A stretch of DNA of 32,000 nt, from assembly GCF_000341395.1 (NCBI RefSeq), contig NC_020304.1:3480001-3512000 (forward strand). The letters are read 5' to 3'. Positions 7,841 to 32,000 of the stretch are shown one piece after another. The translations under genes and the position numbers were made by a program. Below the pieces are notes generated by a model. The model had not been told where the DNA came from and ran no database searches. It was given only the letters and a program-made list of their open reading frames with translations. Origin of the DNA: Desulfocapsa sulfexigens DSM 10523. Its GTDB lineage: Bacteria > Desulfobacterota > Desulfobulbia > Desulfobulbales > Desulfocapsaceae. Within the stretch, counting starts at the first letter, position 1. The number at the start of each line of letters is the position of its first letter.

Positions 7841-9403
7841 TCAGGGAAGAATCACCTGATCGGCCTGTATGGAGTAGAGTTTTACCGCTCGTTCCACACC
7901 ACGTAACTTTCTGACATCTTCTTCTCGTATGGGAAAATTCCCCTTCACATCCCTGTACACAGAATCGGTTATCAAAATCTGACCAGATTCAGTTGAATCG
8001 GCCAGGCGTTGTGCAATATTGACATCCGTACCAATTACAGTGTAATCAAGCCTTCTTGATGACCCTACATTTCCGTGAAAAACCTCTCCCCTGCTAATAC
8101 CTATTCCCAAGCCAAGCTGTTTAAACACAGGGGACTTTTTCAGCCACTTGCATCGTAATTGTTCAAAGCCCTGAGAAAGCTCAACGGCAGTGCACACTGC
8201 GGCATTTGACGGTTCGTCAAGTTCAATGGGAGCACCGAAGGCAACAAGAGCTGCATCTCCCATAAATTTATCAAGAGTTCCTTTCCAGGAAAAAGCCACT
8301 TCAGCAAAGAGATCAAAAAATTCAGTCAGAAAGAGATGGATATCCTTATGAGAAAGATGTTGAACGGCAAGGGTAAAATTTCGGATATCAGCAAACAGGA
8401 CAGTTATCTCTCTGACACCTCCAATTTTCATAATATTTTCACCGGACTTCAGCAGGATTTCGGCAACTTCCGGAGCGACATACTGTTCAAAGAGGGCTTT
8501 GGTACGAACATTCTGCTCGTGCTCCTTAATATATGCCACATTCTCAAGTGCCATAACTGCCTGACTGCAGATTACGGACAGCAGTTCCAGATCCGATTGG
8601 CTGTACTCAACATTCCTGGCAGTCTGACTGATGTTTAAAACTCCAAGAACCTGAGTTCGGCCAACAAGAGGAAAAGATATTGACGCTGCAATCTCTTCAC
8701 GCTTCAGATATTGTGAAAGCGGAGACTGTTCCTGGGTCAGCTTGTTCAAAATAACCGGTTCACCATGCTTATAAACCCAACCGGCAATTTTTTCTCCTGA
8801 CCTGACAGCAACGGATGCAGCGACAGCTCTATCAATACCTCTGGATGCTACGATGTGGAGACAGCTATCTTCCTTCACAAACATCATAAGTGACATTGAA
8901 GGAACTTTTATTTGCCGAGAGACGGCGTCGAGGAGAAGTTCATAGACCTCCTGCAGAGAGTTGGCAGCATTAAACTTTTCACCAAGTTTATACAGGGGCA
9001 GAATGGTTTTGAGGCGTGTGTTTTCTTCACGCAGGGCTGCTATGGCCAATGTTTCCTGGACAGTATTCACCAGGGTCCTGGCGTCCAGCGGTTTCTGGAG
9101 TACTCCGCTCAACCCTCTGTTCATTGCCGTCACCACCATATCCAAATCAGCATGACCAGACACAAGTAGTCCTGTAATTCCAGGGTCTGTCTGTCTAATA
9201 GTGTCAAAGGTTTCAACACCTGTCATCCCGGGAAGCATTGCGTCAACAATTATCAGATCAAACTTGTTAATCATTGCCATCTCCACTGCCTGTTCACCGC
9301 TATGGGCACAGACAACCTCATAACCACTATCTCCAAGAGCCATGCGACTTACATCAGCAATAGAGGCCTCGTAGGCTACAACAAGAATCTTCTGAGGGGA
9401 CAT
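7841..9403 (-). CDS. Response-regulator receiver, GAF and class III adenylate/guanylate cyclase domains (likely adenylate cyclase)
   Basis: The REC domain has LIIVDAMLPGMTG (phospho-Asp), VSG and QKP. A GAF-like middle region follows. The cyclase domain has both metal-binding Asp residues (VLFADIRNF, FMGDAALVAFG), the substrate Lys (DKFMGD) and the transition-state residues N/R (VNIAQRL). The start was taken at MSPQKILVV (9403). Confidence 0.85.
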   Translation of the reverse strand: MSPQKILVVAYEASIADVSRMALGDSGYEVVCAHSGEQAVEMAMINKFDLIIVDAMLPGMTGVETFDTIRQTDPGITGLLVSGHADLDMVVTAMNRGLSGVLQKPLDARTLVNTVQETLAIAALREENTRLKTILPLYKLGEKFNAANSLQEVYELLLDAVSRQIKVPSMSLMMFVKEDSCLHIVASRGIDRAVAASVAVRSGEKIAGWVYKHGEPVILNKLTQEQSPLSQYLKREEIAASISFPLVGRTQVLGVLNISQTARNVEYSQSDLELLSVICSQAVMALENVAYIKEHEQNVRTKALFEQYVAPEVAEILLKSGENIMKIGGVREITVLFADIRNFTLAVQHLSHKDIHLFLTEFFDLFAEVAFSWKGTLDKFMGDAALVAFGAPIELDEPSNAAVCTAVELSQGFEQLRCKWLKKSPVFKQLGLGIGISRGEVFHGNVGSSRRLDYTVIGTDVNIAQRLADSTESGQILITDSVYRDVKGNFPIREEDVRKLRGVERAVKLYSIQADQVILP

Positions 9404-9671
9404 AAATAAATACTCGCAGTAAAATCTTGAATAATTTACCAACTACTTCAGGGAAGATACTAGAAAACTCATTCTGCTTAATACTACCATCCGCATCAAT
9501 AGCTTACAAGCAATAGCCTGCCGTTGAGTTTATTATTTTGGAGCGGATTTCAGTCACGGAAAAGAGCAGACGATACTTTGTTCCTGCATTTATTCCATCC
9601 TGCTTGCAATATTATGTCAGTATAGGGTATTTACCTTCCTATACTGTTTTTCACATTAACCTTTCTGTACT

Positions 9672-11003: not shown

Positions 11004-12606
11004 TCGACTATTTTCAAACCACTTTCTTTTACTTGCATGCTCTCTCAGTTTTCTTTTCACCACTATATGTATCCAGCCGGTGACCGCCGCCCCTGGACCT
11101 CCATCCCTTCTATTTTATTCTGGTAATATACAGAGTGAGACAGAACCCTGCGGTTGACAATCAAACCAATTGGGCGGTCTGCCCAAAAAGATTTACCAGA
11201 TCAACTCCCTGAGTAGCAGTGATAGATCCAACAGACTGCTTCTGGATTCCGGCAATCTCCTTTTTAAAAAGAATTCAATAGATAGAAGGCAGAACCAGGA
11301 AATACTGACCGCCGAGACTATTCTCGACATCTATACAGATATTGGCTATGACGCCGTAGCCATAGGCCCCTTGGATCTTGCAGCAGGAATAGATTTTGTT
11401 CAAAAGAGTTACAGCCATGGCTTCCCATGGATTTCTTCAAATATTACAGGCCCTGACGGAAAGCCCTTATTTACCCAATGGATAACCAGAACTCTTGGCG
11501 ATATAAAGGTGGTCATTACCGCAGTCACGGCCCATCCTCAGAAAGAATATAAAAACATCAATATTCAGCCATGGCAGGAATCACTAACGAAAACTCTCGT
11601 TACAATAAAAGAAAAAAAGGAAAATGCTTTTATTATTCTCCTTTCCTCCCTGAACAATTCTGAAAACGAGCAAATAGCTAAACGTTTTCCAGATATTAAT
11701 CTCCTTATTGGAGCAGACCCACACAGGGGGAACATCTCACCACAGCTTATAGGAAATACCCTCCTTACCCAAACGGCAAAACAGGGAAAATATCAGGGCT
11801 TACTTGAAATCATATTTGGTAAACAGAGGATATGGGGACATGATACCACCAGGCAACTTGCCGACCTCCAGAACAAACTGGGATCGGTTAACTGGCAGTT
11901 ACGACGCCTTAAAAAACAATCTAAAAAGAATGGAAATGAAAACAAATACACAGATACTATCCTTCGCCTGGAAAAGGAGAAGGAAGAATTAAACAGAGAG
12001 ATAGACACTTCAAAAAAACTCCTGACCCAGGAGAAAAAAACAGGAGTGAAAAATGATCAATACAATTATCGCTTTATTGGTCTTAAAAAGAACATGCCAA
12101 ACGATCAGCCAACTGCAGAAAAACTCATTTTGCTTAACCGCGAAATCAGAGAATTAAACAAGAAAAACAAACAGCTTGAGAATACTTCGGGAAACCTGTC
12201 CACACTTACTCAAAACATGGTGGGACATTCCGTCTGCGAAACATGCCATGAAACTCAGGCTGAGTTCTGGAAAGCCACCAGACACGCCTCTGCTTACTCC
12301 ACATTGAATAAAAAGGATAAATCGCTCAATTTGGACTGTTTACCCTGTCATTTGACCATAAACCCCAGGAAATTGGATTCCCAGATCAGCCCTGATCCTG
12401 GTTATCTCTCCTATCCGTCAGCATTACGTTCGGTAGGTTGTGAGTCCTGTCACGGCCCTGGCAGGGAACACTCCATTGCTCCTGAAACCTTTACATTATC
12501 CAGAAATCCCGAAAAGGCCCTCTGTCTCGCCTGCCATACTCCAGAGCATGACGACACTTTCAACTATGCTCCAAAGCTAAGCAGTATAGCCTGTCCTTCC
12601 GAATAA
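10993..12606 (+). CDS. Candidate selenoprotein (U55 encoded by TGA 11155-11157): signal peptide, C-G-U motif, metallophosphoesterase/5'-nucleotidase-like domain, coiled coil and C-terminal tetraheme cytochrome c (c554-like)
   Basis: ATG 10993 is in frame with track ORF 11170..12606, and the only interruption is one TGA. The 5' piece encodes [32 protein letters not shown]|AP (signal peptide), then LLFYSGNIQSETEPCG-U-QSNQLGGL. A SECIS-like hairpin lies at 11170-11186. Four CxxCH motifs (CETCH, CLPCH, CESCH, CLACH) lie at 12235-12537. Confidence 0.7.
11170..11186 (+). promoter_or_regulatory. SECIS-like hairpin (stem TTGGGC/GCCCAA, loop GGTCT) starting 12 nt after TGA 11155-11157
   Basis: Read directly: ttgggc (11170-75), ggtct (11176-80), gcccaa (11181-86). 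The loop sequence and the 12-nt spacing are identical to the hairpin after the fdhA UGA in this window, and the GGUCU loop matches my recollection of the E. coli fdhF SECIS apex. Confidence 0.65.
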
Positions 12607-19227: not shown

Positions 19228-19587
19228 ATGAACTCATTCACAGAAAAAAGAGACACAACTCGCCTGCTCATTGAAACTGAGGTTATACTTCTAGACCAGA
19301 AACAAGAAAAGATTATAGGAAAAATTCTAAATTTGAGTGCCAGCGGTGCGCTTATAGCCATAGAAGATGACCTTACAATTGGAAGAAAGTATGATGTGTC
19401 TATAAAATTGCAGGGTGACACAAGTAATTTGTTTATAGAAAATCTTGTTGCCACCGTTGTCCGTAACGAACCCTGTTGTGTTGCTGTGAAATTTTCTGAC
19501 CCCATGGAATGGCTTACAATATTCTACATCTATAAACAAAAACTCAAGGTCTTTAAAAATGGCCAATTGATAATAACCGACGAATAA
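19228..19587 (+). CDS. Stand-alone PilZ domain protein (putative c-di-GMP receptor)
   Basis: The 119-aa protein has KRDTTR (RxxxR) near the N-terminus and NLSASG (D/NxSxxG). No obvious SD precedes ATG 19228. Confidence 0.72.
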   Translation: MNSFTEKRDTTRLLIETEVILLDQKQEKIIGKILNLSASGALIAIEDDLTIGRKYDVSIKLQGDTSNLFIENLVATVVRNEPCCVAVKFSDPMEWLTIFYIYKQKLKVFKNGQLIITDE

Positions 19588-19610: not shown

Positions 19611-19647
19611 AAAAGCCCTGTGTCTTACTCAAGACACAGGGCTTTTT
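19611..19647. terminator. Bidirectional Rho-independent terminator shared by the PilZ gene (+) and the acs-fdhA-hdrA-mvhD operon (-)
   Basis: AAAAGCCCTGTGTCTT (19611-26), loop ACTC and AAGACACAGGGCTTTT (19631-46) plus a further T form a 12-bp G/C-containing core flanked by A4 upstream and T5 downstream. It lies between the convergent stops at 19587 and 19667. Confidence 0.85.
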
Positions 19648-19666
19648 ATGTTTATAAAAAATTGTT

Positions 19667-20269
19667 TTATTCGCTGAGTGAGGCCAGAGATTTTTCCATC
19701 TTGGTGTTTATTATTCCATTGATATGCTCAACGGTCCAGATTCCATCTTTTCGCACCGCCTTAGTGGCATTTCCAAAACTGATACGAACCTTCTGACTCG
19801 ATACCGCATCAAGTGCTTTTTTGATTCGTTCCTGAACTTTGTCCTTTGTAAGCCCTTCAGCCTCACCAATAGGACCAAGTTCTCTCATGGTCTCGGTAAA
19901 TCCAGTGATATGTTTTACAAACAGAGGTGCTTCAGCAGCCGAAGCCCATTGAAGACTGAAACGCTCCTCCTTAATTCCAACATCTCTGAGTACTTTTTTA
20001 ACAAGTGCATCAACTCCCATCGCATCATAATTACCTACCTGGTAATGACATTCGCCAAGTTGTCAGCCGCCGGTAAAGATAGCGTCGGCTCCTTCAAGGA
20101 AGCCTTTTAACACAAATGATGGGTCAACCCTACCAGTACACATAACGCGAACAGTGCGCAGGTTTGGCGGGTACTGGAAGCGCGAAACCCCTGCTGCATC
20201 GGCGGCTGCATAACAGCACCAGTTGCAGAGGAACCCAAGAATTTTCGGGTTGAATGAATTTTCGGACAT
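19667..20269 (-). CDS. mvhD: MvhD/FlpD-like (methyl-viologen-reducing hydrogenase delta subunit family) selenoprotein, U69 encoded by TGA at 20063-20065; 200 aa with a C-terminal extension
   Basis: Track ORFs 20063..20269 and 19667..20020 share a frame. Reading through the stop gives ...KILGFLCNWCCYAAADAAGVSRFQYPPNLRTVRVMCTGRVDPSFVLKGFLEGADAIFTGG-U-QLGECHYQVGNYDAMGVDALVKKVL..., which is collinear with the MvhD pattern AGCHxGDCHYxxGN. U therefore replaces the first Cys. GGAG lies upstream of the ATG. Confidence 0.85.
20030..20046 (-). promoter_or_regulatory. SECIS-like hairpin for mvhD (stem AUUACC/GGUAAU, loop AGGUA), 16 nt after the UGA
   Basis: The minus strand reads ATTACC (20046-41), AGGTA (20040-36) and GGTAAT (20035-30). 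Confidence 0.5.
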
Positions 20270-20318
20270 ATTTTTTCTCCGTATATTACTCTTTTTACGT
20301 ATCTCTATGAATGAGGAA

Positions 20319-23300
20319 TCAAGCTTCTACTTTTTCATCGGTTATTTTATTTCCAAAGGCTTCTATTTGAGAAATCAACTGCTCATTAGTGAAGCCACCC
20401 ATGGAAATAGCAAAAGTTGGGCAATGTGAAGCACAAATTCCACAAGCCTTACAGGAAGCTGAAATGGTTCTTGCTTTACGCTTTTTCCCGACTTTTTCCA
20501 TTATAATTGCGCCATAGGGGCAGAGACTGCTACAAAGGCCACAACCGATACAGTTATCCTGTTCAACACTGGAAACAATCGGATCAACGGTGACAAACCC
20601 CTTAACAAGGGGCATAGCTGCCTTTGCTGCAGCAGCCTGCGCCTGGACAATTGTTTCCTCAACAGGTTTCGGAGCATGGGCGAGTCCGCATATATAGATA
20701 CCGTCAACTGCGGCCTCTACGGGGCGAAGCTTCACATGGGCCTCAAGGAAAAATCCATTGGCATTGACCGGGAGCTTGAGCATCTTGGAAAGCTCATCAG
20801 TTCCATCCGGTACAATTCCTACGGACAAAGTTACCAAATCCGGGTTCATACTTACTTCTTCCTGCATGATAGAATCAAAGAAGTCAACCTGTACTTTGGT
20901 ACCTTTTGAGCTCACAACAGGCCTTCGGTCAGTCTCATAGGGAATAAAAACAACACCCTTCTTTCTCGCCTCAAGGTAAGCATCTTCTGCAAAACCATAG
21001 GTCCGGATATCACGATAAAGAACAATAATCTGGGAGTCAGGATTAATTTCCTTAATCTTCAGAATATTTTTCATCGCATGATTACAGCACACCTTGGAAC
21101 AATAGTTAAGATCCTCACCCCGGGACCCGGCACACTGGATCATCACAATAGAGTTAGGCGCGCGATTCTTAGTTCGTCCGGCAAGCTTCGCTTCAAGCTC
21201 CTGCTGTGTAACAACCTTTTTTGATTTGCCAAGCTCATATAAATCAGGACGGTGCTCGTGGCCACCGGTTGCCACCACTATAACACCGTGGTCATAAACG
21301 GTTTCTTTCTTGTTTTTACCTTTTCCGCTTTCGATCACAGAATTAAAGTTACCGATAAATCCAGATGTCTGGGCGAGGGATCCATCGGTAATAACGGTAA
21401 TCTTTGCTGATTTCTGAACCTTTGCGGTAAGTGTTTTCAAAAAAGTTCCAACCGTATCTCCTGCGAGAGTATTTTTCAGATTCTTTAAATTACCACCAAT
21501 GGAAGGTGATTTCTCAACAAGAATCGACTCAAAGCCCTGATCGGCAAGAGACAATGCAGCAGTCATACCAGCTATTCCACCACCAATGACAAGGGCTTTA
21601 GGGGTAACTGGAACTGTCTGTTCTGGAAGTGGTTGAATATGTGCAGCCTTTGAAACAGCCATACGAACCAGGTCCTTGGACTTTTGTGTCGCAGCTTCAG
21701 GCTCATTGGCGTGTACCCAGGAACATTGATCCCTAATATTCACCATCTCAAAGAGGTTTCTATTCAATCCTGCATCCTTTAACGTCTCCTGAAAAAGTGG
21801 TTCATGTGTTCTTGGAGAACAGGCTGCAATGACAACCCTGTTTAATTTCTGATCTTTGATTGTTTTCTTGATCTGTTCCTGAGCATCCTGAGAGCAGGAG
21901 TAGAGGTTTTCTGTGTAGTAGGCGACATTATCCATTGTCCCGGCATTATCAGCGACATCCGGACAATCGACTACGGAGCTGATATTGATACCACAGTGAC
22001 AAACAAAGACGCCAATCCGTACTTCATCCTCATCTGTTACAGAGAGTTCGCTGGGATATTCCTTGATAATTGTTCCCTTACCTCTCTGTTTTTTCAGGAT
22101 ACTTGCAGCAAGCGCTGCAGCACCGGATGACTGGGTTGCTGACTCTGGAATATCCTTGGGCCCCTGAAATGCACCGGCAACTACAATACCATCCTGAGAA
22201 GTCTGCAGGGGGGTAAAGGAGTTTGTTTTACAAAAATCATATTTATTGAGTTCTATTTTGGTTATATCTGAGATCTTCTGGGCGTCCTTGGGTGACTCAA
22301 GACCGACAGAGAGAACAACCATATCATGGGCATCAAATTTGTGTTGACCATCCAGAGTAGAGTAGGTAAGTCTCAGATGATTCTCCCACGGAGTAACATC
22401 GGCAACTTTTGCACGGACAAACTTAATTCCAATGGCCTCAGCCCGCTCACGAGCTGCATCAAAATCTTTTCCCTGGGTACGGATATCCATGTAGTAGATG
22501 GTAATATCCACCTCGGGATCATGTTCTTTTGTTACAAGGGCTTCCTTAATTGCATACATGCAACAGACAGAAGAGCAGTAGCCATTGTCGCAGCCAAGAT
22601 CCCTTGATCCGACACACTGAATGAATGCCATGGATTTAGGATGACGACCATCGGAGAAACATTTAATCTCACCAAGGAACGGCCCTGAAGCAGTGGTCAT
22701 CCGCTCATACTCATAAGCGGTGACAACGTCTGGATGTTTTCCGTAACTGAATTTTTCAAGAGTTTCATCAGCAATCTTACCAAAACCAGGTGATAGAATG
22801 ACAGCTCCAATCTTGAGGTCCCGTGACTCTGGTTTCTGGCTGAAATTAATTGCATGACTCTGACAGACGGGAACACAGATCTGACAGGTATCATATTGAA
22901 TATGCATGCAGGATGCAGGATCAATATAATAGGTTGCGGGGACAGCCTGTGCATAATCGATATGAATTGGCCTGGTAATGGACAATCCTTCATTATATGC
23001 ATCTGCATGATGCTTTGGACAATACTGGGTGCATAAACCACAGGCAGTACAGGCATCAGCATCAATATAGCGCGGCCGTATGTTCAGCTTTGCTGTAAAA
23101 TTCCCTGGTTTTCCCTCCAATGCAAGAAAGTCAGCATTGGTGATCATTTCAATGTTTGGAGACCGACCGGCCTCTACCAGCTTTGGCGCCAGGATTCAGA
23201 GTGAACAATCATTGGTCGGAAAGGTCTTGTCAAGTTGGGCCATCACACCACCAACAGCTGGTGCTTTTTCGACCAGATAGACATAATAACCAAGGTCGGT

Positions 23301-23384
23301 CATATCAAGAGCAGCCTGGATACCGGCAATTCCCCCGCCGAGTATCATTACAGCTCCTTCCCTCTGTGTTATCGCTTTTCCCAT
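20319..23384 (-). CDS. hdrA: Heterodisulfide reductase subunit A-like flavoprotein (tandem or duplicated HdrA architecture, 1021 aa), selenoprotein with U63 encoded by TGA at 23196-23198
   Basis: Track ORFs 23196..23387 and 20319..23147 share a frame. Read-through gives [14 protein letters not shown]...[35 protein letters not shown], matching the HdrA motif NDCSxCILAPK. A second Rossmann motif ([18 protein letters not shown]) and a second IQCxGSR block ([20 protein letters not shown] versus [22 protein letters not shown]) are present, along with several 4Fe-4S Cys motifs. ATG 23384 is preceded by GGAG; the track start 23387 is a GTG. Confidence 0.88.
23159..23174 (-). promoter_or_regulatory. 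SECIS-like hairpin for hdrA (stem GAGGCC/GGUCUC with one G.U pair, loop GGUC), 21 nt after the UGA
   Basis: The minus strand reads GAGGCC (23174-69), GGTC (23168-65) and GGTCTC (23164-59). Confidence 0.5.
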
Positions 23385-23484
23385 CACAATCTCCGGGCTA
23401 ATATTTTTTGTAATTATCTACTTACTTGTTCAACGCAGTTTTTCACCCTGCGAAAAGTACAAATCGTTTTTTTAACTCTCTTCC

Positions 23485-26400
23485 TCAGGCAACTTCAAGT
23501 TTTGTGATCTTGATAGCACAAACCTTGGCCTCGGGAATTTTACATTGTGGATCGAGTGCGTCATTAGTCAACAGATTGGCCGAGGCCTCCTTATAATGAA
23601 AAGGAATAAAAACCAACCCCTTATTAACTCGCTCTGTAATCCTTACAGCAATTTCAATTTCTCCACGTCGTGATGCAGCACGAACCATTTCATTATCAGT
23701 GAGATTCAGGGTAGCAGCATCTAAGGGATTCATTTCGATATAGGCAGATGGAGCAGAACTTTCCAGAACATCTGAACGTCTGGTCATCGTTCCCGTGTGG
23801 TACTGGTACAGAATTCTACCGGTTGTCAGGACAAGCGGATACTCTTCATCAGGATTTTCTGCAGGTCCATTCCAGGTAATGGCGGACAACCACGCCTTAC
23901 CAATCGGAAACCCAGTTTTGTGAAGAATTGGAGTTCCAGGGTGATCAGCTTCCGGACATGGCCAGGCAAGTGACTCTTTTTCAAGTCTTTCATAACTCAT
24001 TCCCGCCATGGCTACCCAGCACTTTGTTATTTCATCAAAGACTTCATTGGCAAAAGGTGGAACGGTATGAAATACAGGGTCACTGCTACCCTGATATCTT
24101 CCATTCTGATTCCCTAGTATCCTGTTACTTACCATATTAATTATTGAAAGATCGTCCCTGGCATCTCCAGGAGGAGGTACGGCGCGCCGAACACGCTGAA
24201 CCTTTCTTTCAGTATTTGCAAACGTTCCATCTTTCTCAGCGAAGGAGGCAGCTGGTAGGACAACGTCTGCAATTTCAGCAGTTTCAGTGAGGAAAATATC
24301 CTGAACAACCAGGCATTCGAGTTTCTCAAAGGCCTTTTTCGCATGACTACTATTGGGATCGCTGAGAACAGGATTTTCACCCATAATCCACAATCCGGCA
24401 ACTTTCCCCTGAAGCATTGCATCACCCATTTCTGTCGCCATAAGACCTGGCTTATTCGTAATTGGGCTTTGCCATATTTCTGAAAACTTTGTACAGGCAG
24501 CTTCGTCATCACAACGTTGATAACCAGGGAAAAACGTTGGAACACAACCCATATCACTGGCCCCCTGAACATTATTCTGGCCACGAAGTGGATTAAGTCC
24601 TGCACCTTCTTTGCCAAGATTTCCTGTTATCACTGCAAGGTTCGCGAGTGAACATACATTATCAGTACCTGAGGTGTGCTGGGTAATACCCATGGTGTAG
24701 TAAATGCCGGCCTTATCAGCCTTCGCAAATGTATGTGCTACTTCCTCGATCAAGGTCACCGGTACATTGGTAATAGCTGCAGCCCATTCAGGGGTACAAT
24801 CAGCAATGGATTTTTTAAAAGCATCAAAATTCTCTGCACGCTCTTCAATGTATTTTTTATCCTCAAGACCGTCACGAAGAATGACATGACACAAAGCATT
24901 AATCAACGCACCATCGGTTCCAGGTTTCTGCTGTACCCAGTGATCTGCTGAGTCACACAATTTAATACGGCGGGGATCCGCAACAATGAGTTTAGAACCG
25001 TTCTTTGCAGCCTCAAGCATGCGTAAGCCGATAATAGGATGTGTCTCTGTTGTGTTGGATCCAATAACCAGCATCACATCACTATCGAGAATACCGTTAA
25101 TGGTGTTAGTCATTGCGCCTGAACCAAGTACTGTGACCAGACCGGTCACCGTTGGGCTGTGTCAGTATCTGGCACAATGGTCAACGTTATTTGTCCCTAT
25201 TCCAGCTCGGAAAAACTTCTGAAAGGCGTAGTTTTCTTCAGTGGTACATCGGGCTGAAGAGAGTCCGGCAAGAGCATCAGGCCCTTTTTCACCGAGAATA
25301 CGGGAAAAGGCTTGGCCCATAAAATCCAGGGCCTCATCCCACTTCACCGGTTCGAGTGGCATCCCCTTCTGTCTGCGAATAAGAGGTGTCTTTAATCGAT
25401 CTGGATGTTGGATAAAATTATGGCCAAATCGTCCTTTAACACAGAGATCACCAAAATTAGGTCCAATCTCAGGATCAGCAGTCACCTCCATGACGGTGTG
25501 ACCTTTCACCTTGAGGATCATTTGACATCCGGTTCCACAATAGGGACAGGTAGTTCTGACCTCTCGAACATCTTCCGCCTGAATAGGCACAATACGATTC
25601 TTTTTATTCAGGGCCCCGGTGGAACAATTCTCAACACATTTACCACAGGAGACGCAATTTTCCTTAAAATCGATAACAAGGCCTACTGGTCTGCCTTTTT
25701 CATCGACAGATTCAGCACGTACTTCAAGTGCGTCATATTCACACGATCGTTCACAACGACCACAGAAAATGCACTTATTTGGGTCGACAGTGATTGCGCG
25801 ATGACTGGTATCAACGGGATAAACAGGTACTGTACCCATTCCGGTTTTATTGATATTGACATTCAGTTCGATATCGAGGCGTTTCAGATCACAACGTTCA
25901 AAGGCGGTGCAGCCACACTTAAGACAACGATCAGCTTCACGTCTTGCCATTTTTTCGGTGAATCCAAGTTTGACTTCATCGTAATCCTGGGTGGAAACTT
26001 CAGGCGGGCGTTCGGGCATTTTCTCACGAAGATTGATTGCAATTTCATCAAAATTCTTGAGGGAGACATCATCAAAGGATTTTCCCCGGGTAAAATTGAA
26101 CCGGTTATCTGCTGGATCCTTTTCACAATTCATCACATAGGCATTGATATTATTGGCAGCCCTTCTTGCAGAAACAACGGCCTGAATAACAGATTTAGAA
26201 CCATTTGCAGCATCACCGCCTGCAAAAACTCCATCAACACTGGTCTCTGAACTTCTGGGATTAGAAACAAACATTCCCGCGGGAGTGATTTTGAGCTGTT
26301 CTTCAAGTTCCCCACCGGAAATAATGCCATTTACTGCCATTTGACCAAGTGAAGAGACAACGGTGTCAACGCCTAAGGAATTGGTTGAGCCAGGTATGGG

Positions 26401-27657
26401 CAGGATATCCCGTTTGCCCTTTTTGTCTGGTTCACCAAGTTTCATCCTGATAAGATCAAGTTTCAGCCGATTGTTTTCATCTGGAACAGCACAAAGCCCA
26501 GAAGGTGAAGCCATAAGAAGAAACTGGACGCCTTCGTTCTCTGCTTCCTTCACATTACGCTGGTTGGCTGGCATCTCAAGGCGAGCCCTAGGGTATACTA
26601 TTGTTACCTGTTCAACACCCTCACGAAGCAGCGACCTAGCTACTTCCATGGCGATGTTATTGCCTCCGATTACTGCGGCAGTGCGACCAAGATCGAGTTT
26701 TCTGCCTTCATTGATCATGCGGAGAAAACTGGTGGCTGTGTAGACATTCTCCTTGTCGGTACAGGGTACGTCAAAGGGAACATCAATGGTTGCACCGATC
26801 CCAATAAAAGTGGCATCAAACCCCATATCTTTGAGGTCCTGCAGGGTGAAATCTTTCCCCCATTTCTGCGACAGCCGAATATTGATTCCCATGCGCAGAA
26901 TAGCGTTGACTTCATAATCAACAATCTCTTTGGGAATCTTGTAATCAGGAAAGCCATAACGAAGTGCGCCGCCAAGTTTAGGGGCAGCTTCAAAGATGGT
27001 AACCTCATGACCTTTTCGGGTCAGGAACCATGCCGCTGTGAGACCAGCTGGGCCTCCACCGATAACTGCGATACGCTTACCGGTTGGTTTATCTTTTGGA
27101 ATTTTCAGATCAATCTCATGACTCATGCACCAGTCGGCAACAAAACGTTTCAAATGATTGATGGATACTGGTTCGTCAATGAGAAGCCGGCGACAGCGGG
27201 TTTCGCAAAAACGGGGACAGACACGGCCAACGGAAAATGGAACAGGATTGCGCTCCATGACAACACGCAAGGCCTCCTCGTATTCTCCTTTTGAAACATG
27301 AGCAATATACGCCTGAACATTGATCTGACCGGGACAAGTGAGATTACATGGAGCCTTGCAATCACCGAAATGCGTCTCGGAGATGATGGCAAGTCGATCC
27401 TGTCTGTGGCTAAAAACCTCCTCAGATTCAGTTTGTATATTCATTCCGTCACGAGCAAGAGTAACACAGGAACGCATTAAATCTTCCTGTCCTTCCACTT
27501 CCACCACGCAGATCTCACATGGGTTAGTAGAAGGTTTTCCTTTCACATGACAGAGAGTTGGGATTCTGATATCAGATCTTTTAGCAACTTCAAGGATGGT
27601 AAGGCCTTCCTCTGCTACTATCTCATTGCCGTTTATAGTCAGTGTAACAGTGCTCAT
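23485..27657 (-). CDS. fdhA: Selenocysteine-containing formate dehydrogenase alpha subunit fused to N-terminal 2Fe-2S, GltD-like NAD(P)H/FAD and 4Fe-4S ferredoxin modules (1390 aa; U832 encoded by TGA at 25162-25164)
   Basis: Track ORFs 25162..27657 and 23485..25149 share a frame. Read-through gives [31 protein letters not shown], the FdhA Sec motif. The N-terminus has a NuoG-type 2Fe-2S domain (CHVKG..CEICVVEV..C). It is followed by a glutamate-synthase-small-subunit-like region (GRVCPRFCETRC, IAVIGGGPAGLTAAWFL, AVIGGNNIAMEVA, GVFAGGDA) and by CIFCGRCERSC, CVSCGKCVENC and TCPYCGTGC. The remainder is a molybdopterin oxidoreductase body and C-terminal barrel. Confidence 0.92.
25133..25149 (-). 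promoter_or_regulatory. SECIS hairpin for fdhA (stem GUGACC/GGUCAC, loop GGUCU), 12 nt after the UGA
   Basis: The minus strand reads GTGACC (25149-44), GGTCT (25143-39) and GGTCAC (25138-33). Flanking CCAA...UUGG could add a lower stem. The element closely resembles my recollection of the E. coli fdhF SECIS apex. Confidence 0.75.
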
Positions 27658-27666
27658 GAATTCCTA

Positions 27667-29022
27667 TTAGTTAGAAGGTTTCCATTCTTTCAGGAACACT
27701 GGAAGATGTCCGGCTTCACGAGGTCCAATAATGATATTCCAATCTGGAAGTTCTTCTTCAAGCTCACCTTTAAGTGACGCAAGATAGCCGGGAATGATAA
27801 TATCACGATGTTTGACCTTATCCTCAATGCCACCTTTTTTAACAAACTGAGCAATGAGGTCAGCACCAAATTTTCCAGCTGCCCATGCCGTAAGAACCGA
27901 GAGTCCTTCAGTATCCTTGATAAGCAGCCAGGTTGGAACCTTGGAACCTTCAATCTCACCAGAAACAATAAAGTAGGTAAGCGAAAAGTTACAGGTGATA
28001 ACAACCGGGGAGTTCTCATCGGGTCCAGTAAGTGGATAAATATCCTCTGTAACAACCATGGGACGCTGAGGGTCGGTAAAAATATTCATCCGCTCAAGGA
28101 AAAGCGGAAAGATCAGGTCGCCCTGAAGATCGCCAAGTACTATGATACCTGCATATTTGGCAATGAGCACAGAGGCAACCATCGCTTCAAGCATTGGATC
28201 ATCGGTAATCTCACATGGGAAGGTAATAGTAGGAAACCCAAGAGGTTTAAACTTGGCTTTTACAGCAGAGCGCCTTGCAACCACATTATCCTCAAATGCT
28301 GCACGAAGAGTACGAGCACCGGTATCAATGACCATATCTTTAAGGCCGGCTGCACTGAGCTTTTCAGCAATTTCAACACAGTTATCAAGATTACTTGCCT
28401 TGACACCTACTGGGGCCTTAAAACTGCTGCCAAGCTTTGCCATATCGTCTGCATTATCAAGAGTTGCACCATAAAGCAAAGGCACTCTATCACCGCAGAT
28501 CTTAGCGGCTGCTTCCATATTTGCAGCAGAATCACTCATAAGGATGATGGCAGCACGAGCAGAACCTTCAAGTACCCTCTTGGTGAGAGCAACAAAGGAG
28601 GCTTCATCGTTTTTGGAATCTTTAACAGCAATGAGATCCGCACGCATGATAACTCCAACACGCTCGTATTCGAACTTATTAAAACGCTCAATACGGCCAT
28701 CGACATCAGCATCGCTCATTTCAGTGGTAACGAGAACTGCGATACCTGTCTGATTCTCAAAACGCTTATCATGACGATACATACAGGTCTCGCCACCGGA
28801 GACAAAACTATTATCCTTGGCACCAAGTTTAATGGTGCGTATCGGAGGAGCAGAAGCCTCGCTAATGGTGGCCTTGGCCTCATCGGAAACATAAGGACAT
28901 TCATCAATTTCAACCTGGCCAGCCGCTACTTTCATAGCAAAGGCAAGGCAGGTAGGGATGCTACATTCGCCACAATTTTTCTTGGGCAGCATCTTAAGAA
29001 TTTGAATACCGGTTAAGGCCAT
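27667..29022 (-). CDS. acsC: Corrinoid iron-sulfur protein large subunit (CFeSP gamma; AcsC/CdhE)
   Basis: The N-terminal 4Fe-4S motif is LPKKNCGECSIPTCLAFAMKVA...ECPYV. The 451-aa length and operon context fit. The GGAGG SD lies 7 nt upstream of the ATG. Confidence 0.92.
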   Translation of the reverse strand: MALTGIQILKMLPKKNCGECSIPTCLAFAMKVAAGQVEIDECPYVSDEAKATISEASAPPIRTIKLGAKDNSFVSGGETCMYRHDKRFENQTGIAVLVTTEMSDADVDGRIERFNKFEYERVGVIMRADLIAVKDSKNDEASFVALTKRVLEGSARAAIILMSDSAANMEAAAKICGDRVPLLYGATLDNADDMAKLGSSFKAPVGVKASNLDNCVEIAEKLSAAGLKDMVIDTGARTLRAAFEDNVVARRSAVKAKFKPLGFPTITFPCEITDDPMLEAMVASVLIAKYAGIIVLGDLQGDLIFPLFLERMNIFTDPQRPMVVTEDIYPLTGPDENSPVVITCNFSLTYFIVSGEIEGSKVPTWLLIKDTEGLSVLTAWAAGKFGADLIAQFVKKGGIEDKVKHRDIIIPGYLASLKGELEEELPDWNIIIGPREAGHLPVFLKEWKPSN

Positions 29023-29067
29023 GGTGATTCCTCCAGTTATCTATACAATTGGAATTTTGTATGTATT

Positions 29068-29087
29068 GTAATATTTATTACGTAATA
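29068..29087. repeat. Interlocked palindromes built from the hexamer GTAATA/TATTAC (GTAATA-tt-TATTAC-GTAATA), including the perfect 12-mer TATTACGTAATA, in the acsB-acsC intergenic spacer
   Basis: Read directly at 29068-29087. The 93-nt spacer is very AT-rich. Confidence 0.5.
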
Positions 29088-29115
29088 TTGAATGTTTCTT
29101 GTAAATCGATCAGAT

Positions 29116-31320
29116 CTAAACAGCCGTTTCCATTTCGAGTGCTGGATGGCCTTTTTCCTTGAGGAATTCGTAGATCTCCTCCTCAGTGGTTCCCTGTTCC
29201 TCTGTTGCGATCATATCAAACAGTTCTGGCATACCGATATCAGCACAGACTTCTTTTAATTTTTCAGCAATTTCTTCTTTGAGCATTTTCGGCAACCAGA
29301 CAACTCGTTTAAGCCCACCCTCTGCTTTGAAGAGTTTCTTGGAAGTCATGTAATGCTTACTGACACCCATAAATCCAGGAGTCTGCATACCACCACCGGC
29401 CATGCCGGCAAGAGAGGTGAACTTCATACCAGAGGGAGTCATACCAAGGTAATCACGGTTAACAACCATGATTCCGTTACATGTTGGCAGCATGGCGGCT
29501 ATTGCTTCAAAACAGCCACAGGCTGTCATCGGATTATTCATAAGCGAATAGCAACTTACTTCGGGAACAGCCCCACGAGATGCCTGATTTACAAATTCAT
29601 TAATTCCCGTGTAGTAGCCATTAGCTTCATCGGTACATTCCCCCTTCTCAATGGGCTGATTGGGACCGGTGGGATTAATATTAAAGGATGCCTTACCGTC
29701 GAGCCAGTTGTAAGCACCACACATTCCTATTCGTTCTGGGGTAATTACACATACATGACTTGGAGCAAAGGACTGGCACAGTGTGCATGAGTAGAAAACA
29801 TCCTCGGTCTCATCGGTCATGGCACCAAGACGGAGATCACGTTCGGTATATACAGAGGTGGCAAGATCTGAAACCATCTTTACTCCCTCTTCAGTGGTGT
29901 AGAGTTTCACCTGGATCTTATCAACAATGGCACCAAACTCCTGATGCAGTTTACCATGGAGTACTTTTCCAAGGTGCTTGAAGGAAAAGCCTTTTTCAAC
30001 AGCTGCAGTACCAATCCTGAGCCACATGATGTTTCGCTGGCCCATATGCATAATACCCTGGATGTAGTTCATCAGATGATGAAACTGACGTTCAAGGATA
30101 GGTTCAAAATCAGACTGCATTTCACGGCCTGCGACCTCTACAAGAATACCAAGTGGGACATTTTGACCACGTTCCAGATCGGAAATGTCCAATCCTTCAA
30201 GTGTCACTAATCCATCTTCGATCTCATCCATTTCTTTAGAGATAAGAACTTCAACACCTGGAGTTCGACCACCACCACACTCCATAAAGAGATCGTCCTT
30301 TCGAACACGCTCACCCTCAAAAGCGGGGCCAAAGGACATCGGGATATCGATTTTAGTTACGTTGACCTTCAGTCCACGAACCTCAATTGCTTTTTGAACA
30401 ATTTCTTCATGGGGGACGTTCGACACAACATGCTCGTAGGTACAGACACCAGTGGGCAGAATCTGAGGAATATCATAATCAGAAATGGTTGGAAAACCCC
30501 AGTTAATAGCACCAGCAGCATTTGCATACCACTCATCACTGACTTCACCAAAGGCCATGACAAAGGCAAAGGTTCGGTCTTTGTTATATTTCAGGTTCCC
30601 GGCATAGTCGCCTGGTTTGACCCCACCAAAGGCAAGGGCAACACGACAGGCAAAACCTATGGCAAAAACGGCGGTGGTATATTCACGACCAAATGGAACA
30701 AGACGGGTTCCCCAGCCAACCTGCTGTTTTTGTTTAAGCAGTTGATCGGGAAGACTTATCCCCTCGGTCTGGTCATGCATAAAGATGTACAGATTCTTCT
30801 CCTGAAGTTCTATCGCAATCTTTGCAGCCATTTCAGGATCTTTAGGAGTTCCAAGAATAGCAGCAAAACCAGGGGCTGAGCCATCGACAAATTCAACACC
30901 ACGTTTACGAAAAATTACGTCATCTGCGGCACCAAGCCAGAAGTTATCTGCGGTGGGATCTTCGGTTGCGGTATAGAGGCCAGGTTCATTGAGATACCTG
31001 ATAGCTTCGTACATCTCTTCTGCAAAGAATGTTGCCATACCGGCATCAAGTGCCGGAGCAAGATAGGGAAGCCAGATATCACCTGTTACAACAGGAGGCA
31101 TAAGCTTTCGACACTCCAGAAATATATCTTTCATGTCGCCAAGCTTCTCAACCTTGGCTCCAAGCATACTGTAAATAATTGGCAGAAAATAGGCGGTATT
31201 CGGAAATGACACTTCTTTGTCTTCACCATACTTCTTAACCGCATCTTCATAGCTGCTCTCGGCCATATCTATGATTTTTTGTGCACCGCGGATGGCAGCT
31301 GAACAAATTATTTTGGACAT
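29116..31320 (-). CDS. acsB: Acetyl-CoA synthase catalytic subunit of CODH/ACS (A-cluster subunit)
   Basis: The 734-aa protein has the A-cluster ligand motifs CTLCQSFAPSHVCVITPERIGMCGA and MTACGCFE. The N-terminus MSKIICSAAIRGAQKII is typical of bacterial AcsB. An AGGAG SD is present. Confidence 0.95.
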   Translation of the reverse strand: MSKIICSAAIRGAQKIIDMAESSYEDAVKKYGEDKEVSFPNTAYFLPIIYSMLGAKVEKLGDMKDIFLECRKLMPPVVTGDIWLPYLAPALDAGMATFFAEEMYEAIRYLNEPGLYTATEDPTADNFWLGAADDVIFRKRGVEFVDGSAPGFAAILGTPKDPEMAAKIAIELQEKNLYIFMHDQTEGISLPDQLLKQKQQVGWGTRLVPFGREYTTAVFAIGFACRVALAFGGVKPGDYAGNLKYNKDRTFAFVMAFGEVSDEWYANAAGAINWGFPTISDYDIPQILPTGVCTYEHVVSNVPHEEIVQKAIEVRGLKVNVTKIDIPMSFGPAFEGERVRKDDLFMECGGGRTPGVEVLISKEMDEIEDGLVTLEGLDISDLERGQNVPLGILVEVAGREMQSDFEPILERQFHHLMNYIQGIMHMGQRNIMWLRIGTAAVEKGFSFKHLGKVLHGKLHQEFGAIVDKIQVKLYTTEEGVKMVSDLATSVYTERDLRLGAMTDETEDVFYSCTLCQSFAPSHVCVITPERIGMCGAYNWLDGKASFNINPTGPNQPIEKGECTDEANGYYTGINEFVNQASRGAVPEVSCYSLMNNPMTACGCFEAIAAMLPTCNGIMVVNRDYLGMTPSGMKFTSLAGMAGGGMQTPGFMGVSKHYMTSKKLFKAEGGLKRVVWLPKMLKEEIAEKLKEVCADIGMPELFDMIATEEQGTTEEEIYEFLKEKGHPALEMETAV

Positions 31321-31332
31321 ATCTTAAACTCC

Positions 31333-31360
31333 TGTAATAGCTGTAATAGCAGTAATAAGC
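31333..31360. repeat. Three tandem 9-10 nt copies (TGTAATAGC, TGTAATAGC, AGTAATAAGC) abutting the acsB Shine-Dalgarno sequence
   Basis: Read directly. On the mRNA strand this is GCUUAUUACU-GCUAUUACA-GCUAUUACA-GGAGUUUAAGAU-AUG. Confidence 0.6.
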
Positions 31361-31392
31361 TTTGACTTCTACGTTTCAGTTCAAAGTTCCAA

Positions 31393-32000
31393 TCAGTCCA
31401 TAAGACCGGCAACCATTGCGTTAGTGAGTGCTATGGCTTTGGGATGACGCATGATCATAACTTCTCCACCTGCCATAAGCATGCAGCTGGCTGTAAGTGC
31501 TTCCATCATTATTCCTCGAGTCTCCTGATCACCAATCATATCATCGCTAGGAAGTTTCGTTTCCTTTGCCTTCCAGACTTCACAGCCAAGGTTACAGATG
31601 ATGGGTACCTGAAGCTTTGCATCCTGCTGGGTAAGAGCAGCAATACGAATACGCTCCATTACAGAGTAGGTGTACTCTATACCATAGCCAAGCGCTCCAA
31701 TGGAAGGATCCATCAGGACAGTATCAAGAGAAACACCAAGATTTTCAAGAAGAATGTTTAACTGTTTAGCTAGGTTAACATCAATTGGGGAGGCAGCTAC
31801 AATCGGATGCTGGAATGCCATGGCAGTTGCTCCGATAGTTCTGTAGTTGGAATCCTCAAGGGGCGCAAGACATACTTTTTTATCTCCTATGACGGAGGTA
31901 ATATCTCGCAGAGTTTCGGTATCTTTATCGGAATTACCACATCCCCAGACGATTACTGGGACATCAACTGCAGCAATTACAGCTGCTGCAGTTTTAGCAG
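31393..32000 (-). CDS. acsD: Corrinoid iron-sulfur protein small subunit (CFeSP delta; AcsD/CdhD), 3' part (5' end outside the window)
   Basis: The frame is open to the window edge (…AKTAAAVIAAVDVPVIVWGCGNSDKDTETL…). DPSIGALGYGIEYTYSVMERIRIAAL and the C-terminal MIMRHP closely follow my recollection of Moorella AcsD ([26 protein letters not shown]…LLMRHP). Confidence 0.9.
   Translation of the reverse strand, partial: AKTAAAVIAAVDVPVIVWGCGNSDKDTETLRDITSVIGDKKVCLAPLEDSNYRTIGATAMAFQHPIVAASPIDVNLAKQLNILLENLGVSLDTVLMDPSIGALGYGIEYTYSVMERIRIAALTQQDAKLQVPIICNLGCEVWKAKETKLPSDDMIGDQETRGIMMEALTASCMLMAGGEVMIMRHPKAIALTNAMVAGLMD

Follow-up and report, generated by a model that had tools for sequence, protein, structure and literature searches.

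Which partners does an HdrA-MvhD pair serve when it is encoded in a Wood-Ljungdahl operon that has no gene for HdrB? The question is raised by a stretch of 32,000 nucleotides (nt) from the genome of Desulfocapsa sulfexigens DSM 10523 (contig NC_020304.1, positions 3,480,001 to 3,512,000; hereafter the window), which holds the distal two thirds of such an operon. A sequence-only reading of this DNA had proposed that FdhA, HdrA and MvhD may form a CO2 reductase wired into the operon for acetyl-CoA synthase and carbon monoxide dehydrogenase (CODH/ACS). The conserved gene unit, the lack of HdrB and a plausible contact between FdhA and HdrA all survive our analysis; however, that reading overlooked a methylene-tetrahydrofolate (methylene-THF) reductase gene, metF, in the same operon. 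We tentatively favor, with a confidence that falls somewhat short of even, an HdrB-less bifurcating module in which the methylene-THF reductase would substitute for HdrBC as the high-potential acceptor, while an FdhA with a fused NfnB-like module would supply the NADPH/CO2 side.

HdrA-MvhD, the fused MetF and the fused formate dehydrogenase

In phmmer searches, three segments of HdrA match the HdrA of PDB 5odc (chain A) with domain E-values of 1e-41 to 1e-90. Residues 16-330 align with positions 150-460, covering the FAD domain and the inserted ferredoxin domain; residues 453-633 align with positions 2-182, comprising the N-terminal domain and a second GGGxAG motif; and residues 836-1010 align with positions 474-649, the C-terminal ferredoxin domain. 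A simple head-to-tail duplication is ruled out, as the two halves hold complementary domain sets relative to 5odc, and by this alignment HdrA is a predicted covalent pseudo-dimer with halves that retain complementary accessory domains. Against the NCBIfam HdrA2 model it scores 966 bits, under the cutoff of 1100. MvhD is recovered by Pfam FlpD (E=1.9e-46) and by the VhuD-like model of NCBIfam, and is a [2Fe-2S] protein of the FlpD/MvhD type. The alignments of the products of this family of operons to solved HdrA, HdrC, FdhF, NfnB and StnC structures are unambiguous.

The description of the module as HdrB-less follows from a scan for the CCG motif of HdrB in the window and in a comparison set of 80 related loci (L001-L080), which was supplemented by the contigs L081, L082 and L083: there is none in the window or in L001-L056, with the exception of L045. 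The same scan picks up HdrB in L057-L080, and Pfam CCG confirmed it in L059. Together with a survey of open reading frames (ORFs) and domains, it upholds the earlier observation that neither hdrB nor hdrC follows mvhD in the window, and hdrB, hdrC, cooS and metF were likewise not found in the remaining 19.6 kb of it. A location of hdrBC just downstream of the operon in relatives was ruled out, the downstream genes being unrelated and variable and showing no CCG motifs. The earlier term "HdrBC-less" holds for HdrB, which is absent from the window and about 55 related loci, but not for HdrC in the wider lineage, because an HdrC-like protein is encoded at a second locus in Desulfurivibrio.

Upstream of the window, the operon can be followed on the Logan contig L081, which carries an identical AcsB and has the order malic enzyme, folD, cooS, an 894-aa gene and acsB; the full operon is accordingly folD-cooS-metF::acsD-acsB-acsC-fdhA-hdrA-mvhD. 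The product of the 894-aa gene (L081 6838-9522) consists of an N-terminal methylene-THF reductase (MTHFR, MetF) domain at residues 6-299 (E=8.8e-37), a linker of about 300 aa, and a CdhD domain at residues 599-877. What had been called acsD in the window does encode the domain of the small corrinoid Fe-S subunit (CdhD), but it is merely the tail of this metF::acsD fusion. Two of the genes that the sequence-only reading had proposed to search for, metF and cooS, are thus found upstream in the same operon, with metF sharing the operon of hdrA-mvhD though not neighboring hdrA. Of the 12 loci that show both genes, 10 have metF fused to acsD, with linkers of 219-476 aa. The linker on L081 is rich in Ala, Lys and Glu, of low complexity and devoid of any Pfam domain, and its identity as MetV or AcsE is thereby ruled out; in L039, the linker has TPR repeats. 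The NCBI-style name of the fusion gene is only "acetyl-CoA decarbonylase/synthase subunit delta", by which its metF part is concealed.

FdhA is itself a fusion, and Pfam and PDB matches bear out that it has an NAD(P)H module of its own. From the N-terminus, it displays a [2Fe-2S] domain, an NfnB/GltD-like module with 2x[4Fe-4S] and FAD/NAD(P)H sites, a further 2x[4Fe-4S] domain, and a formate dehydrogenase domain with a Mo/W-bis-pyranopterin guanine dinucleotide site (Pfam Fer2_4, Fer4_20, Pyr_redox_2, Fer4_7, Molybdop_Fe4S4, Molybdopterin and Molydop_binding). The NfnB-like part is recovered by Fer4_20 (E=3e-19) and Pyr_redox_2 (E=8e-27), and residues 102-509 match the large subunit of NfnI (PDB 5jca_L, E=4e-79). 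Residues 1-1039 match the StnC-like chains 8oh5_C and 9bov_A, the former from a structure that we take to be Stn (StnABC), the Sporomusa-type Nfn transhydrogenase. The catalytic domain is full-length, with the selenocysteine (Sec) ligand followed by His in the motif CARY-U-H; residues 699-1387 match FdhF of HDCR (PDB 7qv7_S, E=9e-200), and the protein scores 788.7 bits against TIGR01591 (Fdh-alpha; cutoff 666). ORFs for FMN/NAD(P)H subunits of the NuoE/NuoF-like (HydBC) type, as in HylABC-FdhF2/HytA-E, are present neither in the window nor in L081.

The catalytic half of FdhA (window 23485-25590) occurs as two sequence types among otherwise collinear operons (L004, L005, L016-L023, L026-L029, L032 and L058). 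The HCARY-U-HS type is 65-90% identical to that of the window and the HCARL-U-HA type just 46-51%, while the NfnB-like N-terminal half is 51-78% identical across both. This suggests that the catalytic domain may have been replaced or recombined, perhaps between Mo and W types.

Gene order in relatives and a proposed electron acceptor of HdrA-MvhD

The nearest loci come from Desulfocapsa metagenome-assembled genomes (MAGs), with an HdrA identity of 91-92%, as against 68% in the Desulfurivibrio loci L028 and L058. Across the comparison set, the upstream neighbor of the tandem hdrA defines three main classes, namely fdhA, acsC and cooS. In 26 loci, all from Desulfobulbales and including Desulfocapsa, Desulfurivibrio and Candidatus Desulfobulbus rimicarensis, fdhA lies upstream and the gene order of the window is retained. 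In four loci (L013, L015, L018 and L051), acsC directly precedes hdrA-mvhD and fdhA is missing; a fifth fdhA-less case is the disrupted locus of a cable bacterium (L024). The Sec codon of hdrA is kept in all five, and that of mvhD in all four that reach this gene, L051 ending within hdrA. The disrupted locus, from Candidatus Electronema sp. PJ (L024, 2432-13655), retains the hdrA and mvhD Sec codons even though acsB and acsC are set apart by about 2 kb of inserted small, unrelated ORFs, and acsC and hdrA by about 1.8 kb.

The third class, with cooS upstream of hdrA, comprises 13 loci from Thermodesulfobacteria, Dissulfuribacterales and related groups. Where its downstream order was read (L030, L035, L039 and L049), it continues as hdrA, mvhD, an hdrC-like gene (183 aa), a second mvhD (mvhD2, 121 aa), metV (DUF5981), metF(::acsD), acsB and acsC; fdhA stands at the far end after acsC where this is reached (L030, L035 and L049), preceded by acsE in L030. 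The HdrC-like protein has 4x[4Fe-4S] and finds HdrC as its best PDB match (E=3e-18). In Desulfobacterales it is fused to an NfnB-like module (L034, L043, L047 and L048). In one of these Wood-Ljungdahl operons, from the Seep-SRB1a isolate SM7059A (L048, 10001-24276), the stretch between cooS and metF holds MetV, two different HdrA-MvhD pairs and two fusions, HdrC-like::MvhD (332 aa) and HdrC-like::NfnB-like (595 aa). In Bathyarchaeia, the tandem HdrA occurs in the order NfnB-like, MvhD, HdrA, MvhD, HdrC, HdrB, MvhG, MvhA. The locus L059 (7788-18319) of this group, with GcvH-like, NfnB-like::ferredoxin and MvhD (251 aa) proteins ahead of HdrA, MvhD, HdrC, HdrB, MvhG and MvhA, is of the Mvh-Hdr type with an added NADPH module and a lipoyl-carrier-like protein. 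The N-terminus of FdhA is homologous to the NfnB-like modules beside the tandem HdrA-MvhD in both Desulfobacterales and Bathyarchaeia, and contact of FdhA with HdrA-MvhD is therefore plausible.

MetV is not part of operons of the window type (L081 and related loci); in relatives it is encoded either between mvhD2 and metF or at a separate locus. Desulfurivibrio dismutans exemplifies the latter arrangement. Its operon (RS08760-RS08725) has the same order, that is folD, cooS, an 898-aa "delta subunit", acsB, acsC, fdhA, hdrA and mvhD, while a separate co-oriented trio encodes a 4Fe-4S dicluster protein (RS09145), an MvhD-like protein (RS09140) and MetV (RS09135). All products of this operon are detected in the proteome, and the cluster is co-expressed at the protein level; the trio is abundant as well, with ranks (65-362) in a range similar to that of the operon proteins (52-361). 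A Desulfurivibrio MAG (L082) also has this trio on its own, and a short Desulfobulbaceae contig (L083) shows mvhD2-metV, ending before any upstream gene. Protein-database searches found MetV homologs to be common in Desulfobulbaceae; those for metV, the hdrC-like gene and mvhD2 gave many matches from Desulfobulbaceae and Desulfurivibrio, none of them labeled Desulfocapsa.

Gene content, domain architectures, synteny, the Sec codons of the three genes and the co-expression of the cluster in D. dismutans are observed, whereas physical association of the proteins, bifurcation and the direction of electron flow are inferred. Tandem HdrA and MvhD would form a flavin-based electron-bifurcating core without HdrB, for which the conserved high-potential acceptor would be methylene-THF (E0' about -200 mV), not a heterodisulfide. 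Electrons would reach the MetF tethered to AcsD by way of the HdrC-like Fe-S protein, the second MvhD and MetV. NADPH would enter via the NfnB/StnC-like N-terminus of FdhA, which would also link the W/Mo-Sec CO2-reducing site to the same electron network. NADPH-driven, exergonic reduction of methylene-THF could in this manner pay for the low-potential electrons of CO2 reduction, whose recipients may be CooS, either directly or by way of ferredoxin, and/or the CO2 site of FdhA. The established stoichiometry of the pathway, with one reduction of methylene-THF per reduction of CO2 to CO, offers a 1:1 match of electron pairs. More generally, the tandem HdrA family might be a modular bifurcation core that accepts an MvhAG hydrogenase, an NfnB-like NADPH module or a formate dehydrogenase as donor, and HdrBC or MetFV as the high-potential acceptor module.

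Several lines of comparative evidence point to this arrangement. MetF is read as the partner of HdrA-MvhD because its gene is in the operon and is so often fused to acsD (10 of 12), and because in the cooS class hdrA-mvhD run straight into hdrC-like, mvhD2, metV and metF, far from fdhA, an order reminiscent of the hdrCBA-mvhD-metVF genes of Moorella and Sporomusa, for which biochemical purification has been published. As hdrA-mvhD persist beside acs genes in the four to five fdhA-less loci, the module seems not to be tied to fdhA alone. The route through MetV draws support from D. dismutans, in which the same operon order coexists with a separate trio at similar abundance, and the NADPH role of the FdhA N-terminus from the homologous NfnB-like modules that adjoin this HdrA-MvhD family elsewhere. 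Furthermore, Rnf is reported to be absent from Desulfobulbales, Thermodesulfobacteriales and Dissulfuribacterales, the orders which supply most of the loci studied here.

That fdhA immediately precedes hdrA-mvhD in 26 of the 31 Desulfobulbales-type loci and that all three products are selenoproteins would also suit the enzyme of the sequence-only reading, in which FdhA, HdrA and MvhD alone, independently of MetF, act as an HdrBC-less formate dehydrogenase/CO2 reductase, either bifurcating or confurcating, that links CO2/formate to ferredoxin and NAD(P)(H). The recurrence of NfnB-like modules beside this HdrA family is consistent with it, as are the solved methanogen Fdh-Hdr complexes (with matches to 7bkb and 9sfi/9t1s) and the proposal of an HdrL-FdhAB interaction by authors working on D. 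dismutans, who report similar expression (PMC12142623). However, hdrA-mvhD are retained in the loci that lack fdhA, and metV-metF-acs genes separate them from fdhA in those cooS-hdrA loci that show it. In the CO2-fixing direction, moreover, such an enzyme would use up reduced ferredoxin in orders reported to be without Rnf to regenerate it, and FdhA, with a complete wire from NADPH to Mo/W, could carry out a simple NADPH-dependent reaction unaided. A stand-alone enzyme bifurcating between formate/CO2, ferredoxin and NAD(P)H is accordingly possible, though in our estimate rather unlikely; it would account for less of the synteny than coupling to MetF and is not the reading best supported by the comparative data.

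The same completeness of FdhA, which holds every domain for electron transfer from NADPH to CO2, lends itself to a reading with no bifurcation at all: FdhA would be a self-contained NADPH-dependent CO2 reductase, and HdrA-MvhD a ferredoxin- or NAD(P)H-linked electron transfer device for MetF or CooS. Some HdrA homologs indeed do not bifurcate, such as the Qmo-type HdrA of the same organisms, and cooS is directly upstream of hdrA in 13 loci. We consider this unlikely, since the HdrA of the window keeps, with segment E-values of 1e-41 to 1e-90, the FAD, inserted ferredoxin, N-terminal and C-terminal ferredoxin domains known from the bifurcating enzyme of methanogens and the same tandem HdrA stands in a canonical MvhAG-HdrBC context in Bathyarchaeia. 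A sulfur-carbon link, wherein HdrA ("HdrL") takes electrons from DsrC trisulfide/DsrAB in sulfur oxidation and hands them to FdhAB for CO2 reduction, was proposed from co-localization and expression (PMC12142623) and would fit host lineages of sulfur disproportionators, but is most improbable given that no CCG-domain (HdrB/DsrK-like) disulfide-handling subunit is found in or near the cluster, that the cluster is syntenic with metV-metF and cooS rather than dsr genes, and that a cable bacterium (L024) and Wood-Ljungdahl operons of Desulfobacterales have the pair as well.

Coupling of HdrA-MvhD to MetF faces objections of its own. All of its links draw on synteny and precedent, and with all Wood-Ljungdahl genes in one operon, adjacency would have limited power to discriminate between partners. 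In the lineage of the window, hdrA-mvhD are beside fdhA, not metF; the trio is seen in the genomes of relatives and only presumed for that of the window itself; and the draft genome paper of Ca. D. rimicarensis, which has the same operon order (L011), reports metV to be absent. For the reduction of ferredoxin, Ech or Mvh-Hdr is available as an alternative in some Desulfobulbales, and even for the purified MetFV-HdrABC-MvhD complex of Moorella the second acceptor is still being sought.

A more ambitious version of the MetF coupling, which we hold to be quite doubtful, would unite NfnB-like::FdhA, the tandem HdrA, two MvhD proteins, the HdrC-like protein, MetV and MetF::AcsD in a supercomplex, possibly docked to CODH/ACS, with NADPH as the only electron source for all redox steps of the Wood-Ljungdahl pathway. 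If it were true, methylene-THF reduction, which runs downhill, would directly power the uphill steps from CO2 to formate and/or CO through electron channeling within the complex, with no need for free ferredoxin or Rnf. Bacteria would then have an equivalent of the Fdh-Hdr-Fmd megacomplex of methanogens, and the "second acceptor" that has long been sought for Hdr-linked methylene-THF reductases would be identified.

Selenocysteine codons, operon boundaries and neighboring genes

Each of fdhA, hdrA and mvhD contains an in-frame TGA (Table 1), and in the 80 related loci the codon aligned with it is TGA or a Cys codon, TGC or TGT. This is strong evidence for Sec and agrees with the earlier claim of three selenoproteins; the Sec/Cys alignment is the sole basis of the assignment. 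At the fdhA position, homologs have TGA, with TGT in L029. At that of hdrA, nearly all clade loci of at least 55% identity have TGA, with TGT in L046, and farther homologs mostly have TGC or TGT. At that of mvhD, L001 and L046 have TGC and most other loci TGA. Folding of the 60 nt 3' of the UGAs gave hairpins no better than those of shuffled sequences (z-scores +0.4 to -0.6), an example being GUGACC-GGUCU-GGUCAC about 15 nt past the fdhA UGA, and an Rfam scan of the whole window gave no match to a selenocysteine insertion sequence (SECIS) or any other RNA family. The start, stop and Sec codons of the cluster genes were verified base by base. Automatic gene callers break fdhA, hdrA and mvhD at the TGA.

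Two further observations concern these codons. The mvhD of the Desulfocapsa MAG L001 (13117-13716; MvhD 94% identical) has TGC, whereas its own hdrA and fdhA retain TGA; the alignment marks this as a Sec/Cys switch of very recent date, confined to a single gene of the three. In the window, the stop codons of fdhA (23485-23487) and hdrA (20319-20321) are also TGA, with the Sec TGA about 560 and 960 codons earlier, respectively; as the same codon denotes both Sec and stop within one gene, context must separate recoding from termination.

The six genes of the operon in the window lie on the minus strand with spacers of 72, 93, 9, 100 and 49 nt, in keeping with the tight spacing described earlier (which gave about 97 in place of 100). 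The only long hairpin is a terminator 20 nt past the stop codon of mvhD and 23 nt past a convergent PilZ ORF. With its A4 and T4 flanks and this facing ORF it is bidirectional, and it matches the single strong terminator of the earlier account. The remaining terminator-like matches are stems of 5-8 bp within coding sequence and, at 17, not clearly more numerous than the shuffle expectation of 12.3 +/- 3.4; promoter-like matches (20) are under the expected 23.9. The scan for terminators and promoters thus found no further strong terminator and no above-chance promoter signal inside the cluster, and the six genes are probably one conserved, co-transcribed unit.

The rest of the window encodes unrelated functions. 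The convergent gene, coding for a stand-alone PilZ protein of 119 aa, uses the same terminator as mvhD and is conserved in L001 and L081. A second PilZ protein of 798 aa (HEAT/cNMP-binding/PilZ) and a response-regulator-GAF-adenylate/guanylate cyclase, taken with the first, hint at a local cyclic-nucleotide signaling neighborhood. A 478-aa multiheme cytochrome c with Cytochrome_C554 and C7 domains lies about 7 kb from the operon.

Table 1. Positions of the operon genes, selenocysteine codons, terminator and neighboring genes in the window
Feature	Position	Strand	Remarks
mvhD	19667-20269	minus	200 aa
hdrA	20319-23384	minus	1021 aa; alternative start at 23348
fdhA	23485-27657	minus	1390-aa fused selenoprotein
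acsC, large corrinoid Fe-S protein subunit	27667-29022	minus	451 aa; Pfam FeS and CdhD
acsB, acetyl-CoA synthase subunit	29116-31320	minus	734 aa; Pfam CODH_A_N, CdhC, ACS_CODH_B_C
metF::acsD, 3' end	31393-32000, runs off the window	minus	stop TGA 31393-31395; Pfam CdhD
fdhA Sec (UGA)	25162-25164	minus	motif HCARY-U-HSPTV
hdrA Sec (UGA)	23196-23198	minus	motif PTNDCSL-U-ILAPK
mvhD Sec (UGA)	20063-20065	minus	motif FTGG-U-QLGECHY
Bidirectional intrinsic terminator	19611-19646	none	perfect 16-bp stem, 4-nt loop, A4/T4 flanks
PilZ protein, stand-alone	19228-19587	plus	119 aa
HEAT/cNMP-binding/PilZ protein	2194-4590	minus	798 aa
Response-regulator-GAF-adenylate/guanylate cyclase	7841-9442		
Multiheme cytochrome c	11170-12606	plus	478 aa
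Genes outside the operon, including the four above	remaining 19.6 kb		Dus, PilZ/cNMP proteins, Sel1-repeat protein, aldehyde dehydrogenase, response-regulator cyclase, MgsA, multiheme cytochrome, DHH pyrophosphatase, M18 peptidase

Significance and comparison with known systems

The locus bears on two open questions: by what means the exergonic reduction of methylene-THF is made to conserve energy, and how autotrophs that live close to the thermodynamic limit and lack Rnf make electrons of low potential. Both sulfur disproportionators and cable bacteria belong to this kind of autotroph, and their Wood-Ljungdahl operons share a conserved, highly expressed, HdrB-less HdrA-MvhD module which synteny ties to both MetFV and the fusion of an NADPH module with formate dehydrogenase. 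Since cultured hosts exist (Desulfocapsa sulfexigens, Desulfurivibrio spp. and Thermosulfurimonas), the module is a concrete candidate for purification. There is also a practical corollary: with a hidden MetF domain and selenoprotein genes that are split by gene callers, reconstructions of the pathway can wrongly score metF, fdhA and hdrA as missing or broken.

Parts of the system have been described before. An fdhAB-hdrA ("HdrL")-mvhD cluster beside Wood-Ljungdahl genes was reported for D. dismutans in 2025, with the hypothesis that electrons pass from DsrC to HdrL to FdhAB; that work neither mentions a MetF domain in the "delta subunit" nor links the MetV trio to the cluster (PMC12142623). 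The occurrence of hdrA/hdrL-mvhD beside fdhAB had been noted in Desulfobacterium autotrophicum in 2009 (PMC2702500). HdrBCA-MvhD-FdhBA and HdrABC-MvhD-MetVF complexes have been discussed for Chloroflexi and Moorella, and metF-HdrABC complexes for Seep-SRB. The genome papers of D. sulfexigens and T. dismutans list Wood-Ljungdahl genes and do not discuss this Hdr module, the only "hdrABC" listed in the former being of the qmo type, beside aprAB. The cluster is hence already in the literature, as are functional models for it, which are best taken as provisional; in the papers searched, by contrast, there seems to be no mention of the MetF link, of the composition without HdrB or of the split between two loci.

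Among known systems, the MetFV-HdrABC-MvhD complex (type III MTHFR) of Moorella thermoacetica and Sporomusa ovata likewise brings HdrA, MvhD and MetF together in a Wood-Ljungdahl cluster, and related loci with the order hdrA-mvhD-...-metV-metF are collinear with the Moorella hdrCBA-mvhD-metVF, MetV being present in relatives. The differences are nonetheless considerable: here there is no HdrB, HdrA is a 1021-aa tandem protein, MetF is fused to AcsD, and the NfnB-like NADPH module is present but fused to formate dehydrogenase. Relatives have, moreover, a second MvhD and an HdrC-like protein with an extra 2x[4Fe-4S] domain, and in the lineage of the window (Desulfurivibrio and others) metV, the hdrC-like gene and mvhD2 are at another locus.

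The methanogen Fdh/Mvh-HdrABC(-Fmd) complexes (5odc, 7bkb, 9sfi/9t1s and 8rvu) share with the window all HdrA domains, the [2Fe-2S] connector MvhD, a formate dehydrogenase homologous to their FdhA, and Sec sites of the HdrA/VhuD type. In contrast to them, the host here is bacterial, HdrA has two fused, pseudo-dimeric halves that each retain just part of the accessory domains, an NfnB-like NADPH module is joined to the formate dehydrogenase, and neither HdrB and a heterodisulfide nor an F420-type FdhB is involved. StnC of StnABC (8oh5/8oh9) and 9bov_A have the same N-terminal layout as FdhA, with [2Fe-2S], NfnB-like module, Fe-S clusters and a molybdopterin-oxidoreductase-like domain; unlike StnC, FdhA has a full-length Sec formate dehydrogenase domain above the TIGR01591 equivalog cutoff, and its neighbors in the window are HdrA-MvhD, with no NuoE/NuoF-like StnAB genes nearby.

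Further parallels come from other Desulfobacterota. In the Wood-Ljungdahl-using D. autotrophicum HRM2, Sec-containing HdrA-type and MvhD proteins adjoin cytoplasmic formate dehydrogenase genes (PMC2702500); unlike in the window, its HdrL is an HdrA/GltD fusion, its formate dehydrogenase consists of separate FdhA and FdhB proteins, and the loci are outside the acs operon. The fdhAB-hdrL(hdrA)-mvhD cluster of D. dismutans AMeS2 (PMC12142623), albeit from a different genus, is both orthologous to that of the window and collinear with it.

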